From: Escherichia phage Turkey5
Sequence record: PQ471516.1
Length of the DNA: 64,000 bases
Strand: one strand, 5' to 3'
Position 1 is the stretch's first letter; every line of letters begins with the position of its first letter. This document shows positions 52,876-56,066 of the stretch, in pieces. A program made the translations under genes and the position numbers. The notes under the pieces are model-generated. The model was given only the letters and a program-made list of their open reading frames with translations, searched no databases and had not been told where the DNA came from.

Positions 52876-53364
52876 TTAGACGGACTCGACAATACGTGCC
52901 ATTTGTTCCGCTCTGGATGTGGTTTGCTTATACCATGTACTATCACGCATTTCTTTACCAGCAGTTTTATAATCACCACGACCGAGAGCAGCCATAGCTT
53001 TTTTGAAGTTTAAAACTTTTGATTTACCCATTTGGAAAACCATCAACCACAATACACGTTGTACTTTAACTGGTGCGGTCATACCAAATTGGTCATAAAT
53101 TGATTTAGCGTCATTGTACGCGGATTGAGCATCTTTAATTAATAGAGCATCAGCTTCAGCTTCGGTTAGACCAGATTTGAAATTTTCACCAGGACGAACC
53201 AAGTGACCATAACCAATTGTATCTAAACCTAGACTGTCTTTATACACCCAAAATTTGTCATTCTTAAAATAACCCAATTTCTTTTGATAAGCAATTGTAC
53301 CTTCAAATTCTTTAACTTCTTTGAAAAATTGCTCGTCTGTGTTTTTAATTTCCCATTTACTCAT
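52876..53364 (-). CDS. GH24 (T4-type) lysozyme / endolysin (162 aa)
   Basis: EFEGT...KDSLGLDTIGYGH gives the Glu-Asp-Thr catalytic triad of T4 lysozyme; GAGGA RBS; own upstream TATAAATA. Confidence 0.85.
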   Translation of the reverse strand: MSKWEIKNTDEQFFKEVKEFEGTIAYQKKLGYFKNDKFWVYKDSLGLDTIGYGHLVRPGENFKSGLTEAEADALLIKDAQSAYNDAKSIYDQFGMTAPVKVQRVLWLMVFQMGKSKVLNFKKAMAALGRGDYKTAGKEMRDSTWYKQTTSRAEQMARIVESV

Positions 53365-53381
53365 AAAGATTTCCTCTTAAT

Positions 53382-53389
53382 TATTTATA
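53382..53389 (-). promoter_or_regulatory. T4-type late promoter motif TATAAATA upstream of the endolysin gene
   Basis: Exact TATAAATA on the minus strand, 18 nt upstream of ATG 53364. Confidence 0.45.
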
Positions 53390-53402
53390 GAAGTAAAAAT
53401 AT

Positions 53403-56066
53403 TTATTGGCAAGCCTCAATTCGTCGTGCCATTAATTCTGCACGACGTGTGGTTTGTCTGTACCAAGCAGAGTTACGGATTTGTGCAGCAGCTTGCTTGT
53501 AATCACCTTTAGCTAGACAACTAAGCATAGTTTTAAATTTAAGAACACCACCTTTACCCATCTGGAATACCATTTGACATAGAACTTGCTGTGCCATATA
53601 TGGAGTTTTCATGTTATAAGATGCATAAATTGATTTAGCATCATTAATCGCTTTAGTACTGTCCCTTACAAGCATATCGTTTGCTTCTTGTTCAGTAATG
53701 CCGCCGCTGAAATTTTCACCGCTGATAATCAAGTGTCCATAACCTATAGTTGGGAATCCACGACTATCTATATATCTCCAGAATTTACCATTACGGAAAT
53801 ATCCTTTCGCTGCTTGATATTGTTGAGTACCTTCATATTCTTTCAATTCAGATGTAAATTGAGCATCACCAGGTACAACTTTCCAATCAATTGCCGTTTT
53901 ATCAACGGTTCCAACATTATATGATTCTTGCTGTGATGCAGCAGGAGCAGAAGTAGTTCGTTGTGTTCTTCTACGTCTAGGAACATGACGAGAACCACGT
54001 TGTGAATAACCAGTACCGATAGTTTTGATTTTAGTTGATACAACCAATTCATCACTATCCACTGAAGGTTGAACTACTGCTTTTGGTGCGGCTTGGTTTG
54101 TTGCCTGACCTGCAATTAAGGTTTTATTTGCTGCATCAGAACCAGTACCAGTTTGAGAAGCATAGAATAACCCTGGGTCAACTGAACCACTGAAACCATA
54201 TACACTTGATGATGTAACACGAATCTCAAAAATAATGACACCATTTGCAGTACCAATTTTTTGTCCTTTTTGTACAACATCTTTATTCATCAAATCAGAT
54301 TTGATGTTAAAGAATACCGATTTGTATCCAGATTTATGCTGAATCAACAGACCACCGTTGATTGCTGCAACAACACCACCATCAGGGGCAACAACATCAC
54401 CTCTACATTGAATTTCCCAACCACTACTATCAACTTTACCACCACCTGCAACTGGTACGTTTTTACCCCAGTAACCATTCTGGCGAATAGTACCGCTACA
54501 TGGCATGAACATATGCAAACCTTCATAGGTAATCGTGTATCCGGTCATACCAGGATCAGAAGTCATCAAATCTTCGGATTGAACTGATTCTGTTTCTTGT
54601 GTATAGTTAATAAATTGTACTGCTTCTGTATCTTGTGCTTCTGCTAGTTCAGGAGCCACGTCATTGGCTGGTTGTGGTTGTACTGGTGCAGTAGTTGATG
54701 AACTACCACCACCTTGGTATGGAGGCTCAACGGTACTTCCATGATTTTCCGCATTAACCCAGTTGGAAATGTTATGAATATGATCATTTAATCCAGCAGA
54801 AGGAGTTTTAAAGTCGGGAGCGGAGAACATTGCAGTACCAGTATTACCTGCACTATCAACTGTTAAGTTCTGACCACCACCACTAATGTTCACAGATGAA
54901 CCACCTATTACGTTGGCACTACTTGAACCTTTAATGGATGCAGATGAGCCAGCCGTGATATCAGTACTGCTACCACTTTGTAAACGTAGAGAAGCGGCTG
55001 TTACTAGACGTAAATCTGCACCAGAGTTCAATACAATTTGACCACCTACTTTTGCATCCAAATTACCAATTAAATCTAATTTAGTTTTACCACCAATTCG
55101 GGCATTTAGGTCTTGTCCACTCTCTATATTATAAGAACGTCCTGCAACCATGTTAATATCTTGCCCAGCACGAATGTTAATGTTCTTATCACAGTGCATG
55201 TCAATATCACCGTCACCTGAGAATCTAATACGTGCAGTACCGTCACGGTTAATCAATAGAACGTCACCAGTGGCTTCAGAAAGCAACAATTGAGCACCAC
55301 TGCGTGTCTTTATGACTACACCTTCATTCTTACGAGAACCAACTCTGGTGTCGTTTACGGGGTTATTAAATTGTGTATCCTGGTAACCATCTGGATCATC
55401 ATCCCAAGATGGAGCAGTTAATTCTTCTTCAGTGTATCCATCATCAATAATAAAACTATTCCCGCGTGGTGATGACATACCATAGACAGTACTGGTAGTT
55501 TGTCGAGTACTGCTGCGGTTTGCTACGCCTGCTTCTTCATCATATAGCAAGTTTTGCTTTTTAAGACCTGCGATGATAGGCACGTTTGCATATTTTTCTT
55601 GTGTAGTTGATGAAAGTGTGTTACGGTCATAGTCAGTTACTGGTAATGGCATATCAGTACCGCCATAGTTACTTACTTCGGTTGCCATACCAGGAACCAT
55701 AGTGTTCATTCGTTGATCATAAACACACCCAATCCAGTATGCTTGGAATGTACGAGCCTGTGCAAATATAACAACCACAGTACAACCAACATCAGGAGGT
55801 ACAGCCCAAAAGCCATACCCTTTAGGGAACTGACCATAAGCTTCCGCACTTGGAATGCCGGGTGTTTTCCCTGCGAATGGAGACATGTAAGATGCTTCAA
55901 TCCATGACTCCTTCGAGTTCTTGTCACTTTGTGAACCCTGAATCCATACTTTCAGTTTTCCTGATTTGGTAGGGTCACGGTTATCCATTACTGTTGCCAA
56001 TTGTGGATAAGAAGGGTCAAAACGACCCAACTGTTGTTGTGCATACTTCTTACTAGTATCTGCCAT
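53403..56066 (-). CDS. baseplate central spike (gpV/gp5-like OB domain + beta-helix) with C-terminal GH24 lysozyme domain (887 aa)
   Basis: N-terminal gpV/VgrG-like pattern (KLKVWIQG...WIEASYMSPFAG...VGCTVVVIF); central Gly-rich beta-helix-like repeats; an M23-like beta-barrel region lacking HxH; C-terminal lysozyme domain about 50% identical to the adjacent endolysin. Confidence 0.7.
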   Translation of the reverse strand: MADTSKKYAQQQLGRFDPSYPQLATVMDNRDPTKSGKLKVWIQGSQSDKNSKESWIEASYMSPFAGKTPGIPSAEAYGQFPKGYGFWAVPPDVGCTVVVIFAQARTFQAYWIGCVYDQRMNTMVPGMATEVSNYGGTDMPLPVTDYDRNTLSSTTQEKYANVPIIAGLKKQNLLYDEEAGVANRSSTRQTTSTVYGMSSPRGNSFIIDDGYTEEELTAPSWDDDPDGYQDTQFNNPVNDTRVGSRKNEGVVIKTRSGAQLLLSEATGDVLLINRDGTARIRFSGDGDIDMHCDKNINIRAGQDINMVAGRSYNIESGQDLNARIGGKTKLDLIGNLDAKVGGQIVLNSGADLRLVTAASLRLQSGSSTDITAGSSASIKGSSSANVIGGSSVNISGGGQNLTVDSAGNTGTAMFSAPDFKTPSAGLNDHIHNISNWVNAENHGSTVEPPYQGGGSSSTTAPVQPQPANDVAPELAEAQDTEAVQFINYTQETESVQSEDLMTSDPGMTGYTITYEGLHMFMPCSGTIRQNGYWGKNVPVAGGGKVDSSGWEIQCRGDVVAPDGGVVAAINGGLLIQHKSGYKSVFFNIKSDLMNKDVVQKGQKIGTANGVIIFEIRVTSSSVYGFSGSVDPGLFYASQTGTGSDAANKTLIAGQATNQAAPKAVVQPSVDSDELVVSTKIKTIGTGYSQRGSRHVPRRRRTQRTTSAPAASQQESYNVGTVDKTAIDWKVVPGDAQFTSELKEYEGTQQYQAAKGYFRNGKFWRYIDSRGFPTIGYGHLIISGENFSGGITEQEANDMLVRDSTKAINDAKSIYASYNMKTPYMAQQVLCQMVFQMGKGGVLKFKTMLSCLAKGDYKQAAAQIRNSAWYRQTTRRAELMARRIEACQ

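Follow-up and report, generated by a model that had tools for sequence, protein, structure and literature searches.

A baseplate spike with a C-terminal T4-type lysozyme domain and an apparently old free paralog in the late baseplate operon of Escherichia phage Turkey5

Escherichia phage Turkey5 encodes, in two adjacent minus-strand genes, a baseplate spike of 887 amino acids (aa) that ends in a T4-type (GH24) lysozyme domain and a free GH24 lysozyme of 162 aa. We analysed both genes in a stretch of 64,000 nucleotides (nt) of this phage (sequence record PQ471516.1), hereafter the window, and found that the spike domain and the free enzyme look like old paralogs within one GH24 subfamily, the smaller of which appears to have been lost several times since. 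The window DNA is 98% identical to that of Escherichia phage vB_EcoM_JNE01 (megablast) and about 81% identical to that of PBECO4, 121Q and other Asteriusviruses. Turkey5 is thus a RaK2-like, Asteriusvirus-like jumbo myophage, and the two genes lie in the middle of its late baseplate operon, in a block of baseplate genes that runs without interruption on the minus strand from 48905 to 59273. The genes of this locus are as follows:

59352-60239, plus strand: gene for a gp55-like late sigma factor, in divergent orientation to the baseplate operon (phrog_12791, phrog_234)
58542-59273, minus strand: gene for a 243-aa virion protein
58228-58542, minus strand: gp53-like gene
56078-58216, minus strand: gene for a 712-aa virion protein
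53403-56066, minus strand: gene for the central baseplate spike, 887 aa (open reading frame, ORF)
52876-53364, minus strand: gene for the free GH24 lysozyme, 162 aa (ORF; Pfam Phage_lysozyme; 53% identity to the spike domain)
52467-52862, minus strand: gp25-like baseplate wedge gene (Pfam GPW_gp25 and phrog_43)
48905-52366, minus strand: gp6-like gene

The 887-aa protein is the central baseplate spike. Its identity is 99.4% to the spike of JNE01 and 87% to the PBECO4 and phAPEC6 spikes, and its orthologs CBB_240 (PMC5259590) and phAPEC6 gp241 have been detected in virions by mass spectrometry (MS). From the N to the C terminus it consists of OB fold, beta-helix, HxH motif, linker, dead LytM/M23 barrel and GH24 lysozyme. 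Pfam and structural matches agree on the order of OB fold, beta-helix, M23-like barrel and C-terminal GH24 domain that had been proposed in a previous model-generated note on this DNA (the sequence-only reading). The spike gene is divided as follows:

55719-56000, minus strand: OB-fold domain of the gp5/VgrG type, residues 23-116 (Pfam Phage_base_V; VgrG structures)
55320-55718, minus strand: conserved region between OB fold and beta-helix, residues 117-249 (invariant residues)
54792-55319, minus strand: beta-helix, about residues 250-425 (Pfam DUF2345; VgrG helices in PDB)
54774-54782, minus strand: HxH motif, His429-Ile-His431 (invariant)
54534-54731, minus strand: low-complexity linker, residues 446-511, rich in Gly, Ser, Thr, Pro and Gln
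54102-54533, minus strand: degenerate LytM/M23 barrel without catalytic His or Asp, residues 512-655
53895-54101, minus strand: second linker, residues 656-724, with an 'IGxxYSQRGSxxxP' segment and a basic RRRRTQR stretch
53406-53894, minus strand: C-terminal GH24 (T4-type) lysozyme domain, residues 725-887, with Glu745, Asp767 and Thr773

In the C-terminal domain, Phage_lysozyme (PF00959) matched residues 765-882 with 43 bits, against a cut-off of 22.3, and the domain belongs to GH24 by its T4 lysozyme fold. Taking T4 lysozyme E11, D20 and T26 as the catalytic reference, we found the active site intact at Glu745, Asp767 and Thr773; its loss in the spike copy had been named as a finding that would overturn the sequence-only reading. 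Glu745 and Asp767 are invariant in the spike homologs. These features suggest that the spike carries a working lysozyme. The threonine equivalent to T26 is replaced by aspartate in the spike copies of phages Munch and Hallingskeid and by isoleucine in a deep lineage (d44), all of which retain the catalytic glutamate and aspartate; in the small lysozyme copies this threonine is kept. The spike domain is about 35% identical to that of T4 gp5, and its placement differs: the T4 gp5 architecture, with a lysozyme between OB fold and beta-helix, is not the one found here, as the sequence-only reading had recognized. Residues 117-249, which stand where T4 gp5 carries its lysozyme domain, gave no lysozyme signal. 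We also noted a 236-aa protein (P0068) on a Joint Genome Institute (JGI) metagenome contig of 4191 bp in which the first ~43 residues are gp25-like and lead into the spike linker and a lysozyme domain of the spike type; an assembly chimera is the probable explanation, a real rearrangement a possible one.

The free 162-aa protein matched Phage_lysozyme (PF00959) with 38 bits against the same cut-off of 22.3, and all of its catalytic residues are present (Glu21, Asp43 and Thr49). Spike residues 728-886 align with it without gaps at 53% identity over 159 residues (E=2e-58), in keeping with the roughly 50% estimated before. Both copies also carry an N-terminal extension that contains Trp and is missing from prophage GH24 proteins. 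An ortholog of the small lysozyme, LysUE1 of Asteriusvirus UE-S1, was purified in 2025 and shown to be muralytic and to lyse E. coli permeabilised with ethylenediaminetetraacetic acid (EDTA); its cloning primer encodes the start MSKWEIK, as in the 162-aa protein (PMC12805682).

The sequence-only reading took this pair for a recent duplication, or for the recent capture of an endolysin by the spike or the reverse. The adjacency of the two genes and the 53% identity of their products fit such an event, as does a tree with shallow sampling in which the spike domains formed a clade with 81% bootstrap support, the small proteins one with 58%, and both groups together one with 74%. At the DNA level, however, the two lysozymes are only 58% identical, third codon positions are 47% identical and the longest exact run is 16 nt, so that alignment of protein and DNA points to an old rather than a recent pair. 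The copies have also diverged side by side across phages whose spikes are only 39-87% identical, and the identity within a phage's own pair never rises above that between orthologs. DNA divergence, deep synteny and trees all contradict a recent origin, which we regard as almost certainly wrong. Conversion-like patches were confined to the Eneladusvirus pair: in Yersinia phage fHe-Yen9-04 (locus L007, 6694-7182 against the 3' end of 3977-6658; also L008), the two genes have patches of 89-96% nucleotide identity and an exact run of 32 nt, which suggests that gene conversion has acted locally on the two paralogs.

The Turkey5 gene order recurs in PBECO4, EJP2, Hallingskeid, Munch, Yen9-04, Serratia BF and RaK2, again with a lysozyme of 162 aa. 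In RaK2 (L003, 6842-8335), the spike and small-lysozyme genes are set apart by four small ORFs (two per strand), and the lysozyme–gp25 pair is intact. Five deep metagenomic lineages, with spikes 39-51% identical to that of Turkey5, have a small protein of 160-170 aa between spike and gp25. The small gene is absent from four other deep lineages, in which the spike–gp25 distance is about 10 nt and the other operon genes are all kept. When the lineages were placed on a reference tree of the spike without its lysozyme part, the small gene was present in some and absent from others in both major clades. A parsimony reading in which the small copy arose late was dropped, as a basal member of clade A (d39c) has the small copy.

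In a tree of all the lysozyme sequences, no small copy groups with the spike domain of its own phage and the phage tree is roughly reproduced within each set; the lysozyme tree is without resolution in its deep backbone. One result weighs against the paralogy proposed here, in that sister support for the two lysozyme groups drops from 74% to 26% bootstrap once the deep lineages are added. The sequence-only reading had required the two domains to be closer to each other than to other GH24 lysozymes. Their 53% identity does exceed that to the nearest outside relatives, ~150-aa enterobacterial prophage GH24 proteins (up to 51%), although the margin is slight and the 26% bootstrap value leaves the sister relationship weak. 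One of these prophage relatives lies directly after a tail-tip gene, with a small ORF ahead of it. The trees gave no direction for the original duplication.

We next describe the N-terminal half of the spike. A PDB search with a full-length spike profile was dominated by entries for T4 lysozyme, so we ran the N-terminal and middle parts on their own. Residues 1-470 matched the gp5-like part of solved type VI secretion system (T6SS) VgrG spikes; the OB fold covers residues 19-116 and the helix roughly 250-430. Phage_base_V scored 29.6 bits at residues 23-116, above its Pfam cut-off of 23.8, and DUF2345, the VgrG beta-helix family, scored 30.0 bits at residues 278-330, just below its cut-off of 30.7. 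Matches to VgrG beta-helices in PDB had E values of 1e-3 to 0.16. The structural model of the spike is that of a monomer; in it, the beta-helix region has short regular strands at 246-292 and a predicted local distance difference test score (pLDDT) of 75-85 up to about residue 390. Residues 117-249 contain many invariant positions, gave no family match and have pLDDT values of 27-37, and this segment may require a partner or the trimer for folding. The 712-aa protein encoded next to the spike had no match in the PDB search.

Directly after the beta-helix, His429 and His431 do not vary among 39 aligned full-length homologs, which reach down to 39% identity. A histidine cage of HxH type that holds an iron ion is the hallmark of spike apex domains, and in P2 gpV the motif lies 12 residues from the C terminus (bioRxiv 10.1101/2023.02.25.529910). 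By analogy, His429 and His431 are presumed to form the iron-binding apex of the Turkey5 spike. Several points speak against this assignment and the spike model built on it. The motif is mid-chain, unlike the C-terminal placement in known apex domains, with 456 residues after it; bulky domains beyond a piercing tip would be mechanically awkward; and the monomer model is poor at residues 116-202 and 404-429, with low confidence around the HxH. Short, distant spike homologs were checked for a C-terminal HxH, and most were too divergent or truncated.

The first linker is mostly of low confidence (pLDDT below 50 at residues 450-459, 469-478 and 491-511) and leads into a barrel with the fold of M23 proteins and similarity to that family. 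Peptidase_M23 matched residues 552-607 with 19.6 bits, below the Pfam cut-off of 28.7. The nearest fold is that of EnvC, and the closest structural matches are mostly non-catalytic LytM domains (EnvC, DipM and SpoIIQ). The M23 zinc ligands and catalytic histidines (HxxxD, 'HL' and HxH) are missing from the spike and unconserved in the 39 homologs: the 'HLHFE' of zoocin A aligns with 'llFE' in the spike, the 'HL' histidine aligns with a variable Asn, Gly or Asp, and no invariant His pair exists in residues 512-660. The barrel therefore lacks the M23 HxH, as the sequence-only reading had noticed, and because the M23 catalytic positions hold no conserved His or Asp, we consider it a degenerate LytM domain rather than a peptidase. 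If the barrel were instead an active M23 endopeptidase, the spike would be a bifunctional wall-degrading enzyme like phi29 gp13. Membership in the M23 fold and family is clear, as this would require, but the loss of the catalytic positions and the non-catalytic nature of most of the closest structures make it very improbable.

The resemblance to EnvC raises another idea, that the dead LytM domain switches on a wall hydrolase at the penetration site, as EnvC, NlpD or DipM do. Its targets could be the adjacent GH24 domain, the free paralog or host periplasmic amidases. We consider this analogy a long shot; if it held, the phage would open the cell wall by regulated or hijacked hydrolysis. Between the degenerate LytM domain and the lysozyme, the second linker has pLDDT values below 50 at residues 659-666 and 681-715. 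Gly691 and Pro696 are invariant and Ser692 is nearly so, the remainder being variable and basic, and the conserved 'IGxxYSQRGSxxxP' segment is a possible candidate for a processing or docking site.

The sequence-only reading also assigned the free lysozyme its own late promoter, preceded by an exact match to the late consensus. We found this match, together with further elements of the same kind and a terminator-like hairpin:

59306-59313, minus strand: TATAAATA at the head of the baseplate operon (243-aa, gp53-like, 712-aa and spike genes)
53400-53407, minus strand: core AATAAATA of a late promoter, which overlaps the stop codon of the spike gene and lies 43 nt ahead of the small-lysozyme ATG
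53382-53389, minus strand: exact TATAAATA, a second tandem late-promoter core, its 5' end 25 nt before the small-lysozyme ATG
52439-52462, minus strand: intrinsic-terminator-like hairpin with a 10-bp stem and a T run, directly 3' of the gp25-like gene
52424-52431, minus strand: late-promoter core GATAAATA before the gp6-like gene
1922, 2447, 14083, 30767, 48867, 52431, 53389, 53407, 59313 and 63961: 5' ends of N-ATAAATA copies in the window

These are predicted T4-type late promoters, in that a TATAAATA-like -10 element occurs together with an encoded gp55-like sigma factor. The gp55-like gene matched phrog_12791, 'sigma factor for late transcription', with E=1e-150 and phrog_234 with E=1e-16, and it carries the matching annotation in PBECO4, RaK2, Yen9-04 and BF. 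An ATAAATA late motif has been published for CBB and GAP32 (PMC5259590). Only 2 copies of TATAAATA occur in the 64 kb, against 6.1 expected, and ATAAATA is strongly depleted, with 11 copies on both strands of the whole window. Ten of these 11 lie at most 80 nt upstream of a same-strand start codon (13-65 nt before the gene start), where only 2.6% of positions qualify. This placement is far beyond chance, and the copies can be read as a map of the late transcription units in the window. Sigma-70-type promoters were not enriched in the region (28 versus 25.7 expected), and we put forward no early promoter.

The promoter before the small lysozyme recurs in relatives. Six crown relatives have N-ATAAATA at the stop codon of the spike gene, 37-40 nt ahead of the small-lysozyme ATG; the second core, TATAAATA, is also present in PBECO4, 23 nt before the ATG; and RaK2 has its own TATAAATA 43 nt before the displaced small-lysozyme gene. 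Across the ~10.6-kb locus of 7 relatives, the motif occurs only before the 243-aa gene, the small lysozyme and the gp6-like gene, except that in RaK2 the gp6-like motif is farther upstream and one additional copy lies among the inserted ORFs. It was never found directly before the spike gene in the 7 relatives, or directly before gp25 in the window and the 7 relatives. The gap between the small lysozyme and gp25 is 13 nt and contains no promoter motif, and the gp25-like gene is predicted to be co-transcribed with the small lysozyme. In most lineages, a hairpin with a T run is followed by ATAAATA; stem sequences differ between lineages and pairing is kept. From the positions of the promoter cores and the gp25 hairpin, we infer three local units: the 243-aa, gp53-like, 712-aa and spike genes; the small lysozyme and gp25, closed by the terminator; and the gp6-like gene and what follows it.

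The late promoter is real as a sequence element, and the part of the claim that made it a mark of the small lysozyme did not stand: late promoters also precede the 243-aa, gp6-like and 3346-aa genes, and XaC1 and three deep lineages lack a dedicated promoter for the small gene, which lies 3-12 nt from its neighbours. Because the dedicated promoter is missing in those lineages, it seems to be a later addition.

Two observations concern the downstream end of the locus. The 3346-aa ORF (38813-48853, minus strand), directly downstream of the gp6-like gene, has no Pfam match; its counterparts are ~3460-3510 aa long and keep their position even in the deepest lineages. JNE01 has an additional 254-aa gene (L001, 11224-11988) in the gap between the gp6-like and gp25-like genes (window 52367-52466), which the window lacks; the JNE01 megablast match begins at window position 52410. 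The 254-aa product contains DUF723 and a treble-clef zinc finger and weakly matches DUF2726, and it looks like a mobile nuclease.

The small lysozyme does not lie in a canonical lysis cassette with a linked holin and/or spanin. We found neither in the block 48905-59273, where its neighbours are all baseplate genes, in agreement with the sequence-only reading. All RaK2-like phages, including JNE01, encode a third GH24 protein of 308 aa that consists of an N-terminal transmembrane (TM) segment, a LysM motif and a GH24 domain. Its gene is ~67 kb from the spike, and in 121Q and JNE01 a spanin-like gene and the TM-LysM-lysozyme are ~60-70 kb away. The authors of the CBB study predicted that the TM-LysM-lysozyme is the endolysin (PMC5259590). 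Given this prediction, the label 'endolysin' for the small lysozyme is unproven. Its more likely role is that of a soluble enzyme, made late, which takes part in lysis together with the TM-LysM-GH24 protein.

What argues most strongly against an essential structural role is the loss of the small gene in four lineages. Because these losses came without any other change to the operon, the small lysozyme is probably not an essential part of the virion. According to the CBB authors, it has not been confirmed as a structural protein in RaK2-like phages (PMC5259590), and it is absent from the phAPEC6 virion proteome. We rejected the idea that such absence proves the protein to be non-structural, as the spike itself was missed in two studies.

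Some observations sit uneasily with a lysis function. The TM-LysM-lysozyme, the predicted endolysin, appeared to be toxic to E. coli, in which its induction inhibited growth, according to data that the authors did not show (PMC5259590). Virion MS is insensitive to low-copy proteins, the hub/spike itself having been missed in RaK2 and XacN1. The small lysozyme is always inside the baseplate operon, with gaps of 3-12 nt and no own promoter in deep lineages, and this constant placement would also fit a baseplate-linked role. The small lysozyme might accordingly be associated with the baseplate, as a low-copy structural part or as an assembly factor that docks on the spike, the hub or gp25; it would then supply in trans the internal function of T4 gp5, and the TM-LysM-GH24 protein would be the true endolysin. 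Its invariable position between spike and gp25, its co-transcription with gp25 up to the terminator boundary, the tight coupling in deep lineages and the Trp-containing extension that it has in common with the spike copy and that prophage GH24 proteins lack would all suit such a role, as would the separate signal-arrest-release (SAR)-like lysozyme and spanin elsewhere and the ease with which low-copy proteins escape MS. Against this stand the four lineages that lost the gene and kept all other operon genes, the virion proteomes of RaK2-like phages (PMC5259590) and phAPEC6 in which it was not found, and the purified ortholog LysUE1, which is soluble and active alone (PMC12805682). On balance, we judge a baseplate role unlikely.

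We favour the explanation that Turkey5 has a trimeric spike with a dead LytM domain and a lysozyme, and an ancient free paralog that serves as a soluble late lysozyme; we put the probability of this explanation as a whole at roughly 70%. In this scheme, the gp5/VgrG-type OB fold of a presumably trimeric spike would dock under the tail tube, and the beta-helix would form a needle that ends in a putative HxH metal-cage apex. Past the HxH, the chain would run through the flexible linker into the dead LytM barrel and then into the T4-type lysozyme with its intact active site. Tail contraction would drive the needle across the outer membrane, whereupon three tethered lysozyme domains could cut peptidoglycan locally and let the tube pass. 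The dead LytM domain would most likely serve to bind peptidoglycan or to regulate, rather than as a peptidase. The 162-aa protein would act as an active soluble muramidase, made late from the internal gp55-type promoter in a two-gene unit with gp25.

Much of this arrangement is known, and it is real and well conserved in RaK2-like phages. In Pectobacterium phage CBB, Buttimer et al. (2017) described CBB_238 as gp25-like, CBB_239 as a small lysozyme of the T4 type and CBB_240 as gp5-like, the last having an OB fold at its N terminus, possibly an M23 domain in the middle and a lysozyme at its C terminus, and they pointed out the difference from T4 gp5 (PMC5259590). This trio and its RaK2-like orthologs are of the same gene families and in the same order as at the Turkey5 locus. 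The CBB paper does not include the paralogy or its age, the small-copy losses, the HxH motif, the loss of the M23 residues or the lysozyme–gp25 unit (PMC5259590), and a cryo-electron microscopy (cryo-EM) paper on phiKp24 and a genome paper on fEgEco12 contain nothing specific on the spike or lysis genes. Our analysis adds the dead LytM domain with its EnvC-like fold, the invariant mid-chain HxH, the unit of promoter, lysozyme, gp25 and terminator, the age of the paralogy and the patchy losses. For annotation, we advise against 'baseplate hub subunit' as the default label of the small gene and against naming the M23 domain a peptidase; ATAAATA is a reliable marker of late transcription units in the RaK2-like clade. 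More broadly, a tail spike can bear enzymes beyond the needle tip, and three related lysozymes can be maintained in one genome to serve entry and exit. Current understanding is not overturned; the locus varies the T4 gp5/e theme within a phage clade that is large and poorly characterised.

Several known systems resemble parts of this arrangement. Vibrio cholerae VgrG-3 is an evolved VgrG spike of the T6SS that carries a peptidoglycan hydrolase as its C-terminal effector. Like evolved VgrG proteins, the Turkey5 spike has a gp5-like OB fold and beta-helix followed by C-terminal wall-degrading cargo; unlike them, it has no fused gp27-like module, belongs to a phage virion and carries its GH24 cargo after a dead LytM domain. 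With the apices of P2 gpV and phi92 it has in common a family-invariant HxH directly after the beta-helix, whereas in P2 gpV only 12 residues separate the motif from the C terminus, compared with 456 in Turkey5. EnvC, NlpD, DipM and SpoIIQ, which also have degenerate LytM domains, are cellular regulators or scaffolds; a partner or regulatory role of the phage domain is hypothetical. The T4 gp5/e pair is the closest mechanistic analog. T4 likewise has, in one genome, a spike with a T4-type lysozyme and a free paralogous soluble lysozyme, a spike built from an OB fold and a beta-helix, late genes transcribed through gp55 and TATAAATA, and scattered lysis genes. The position of the domain differs: in T4, the lysozyme separates OB fold from beta-helix and a distinct PAAR protein (gp5.4) forms the tip, whereas in Turkey5 the lysozyme is C-terminal, after the HxH and the dead LytM domain, and the free paralog is adjacent, inside the baseplate operon.

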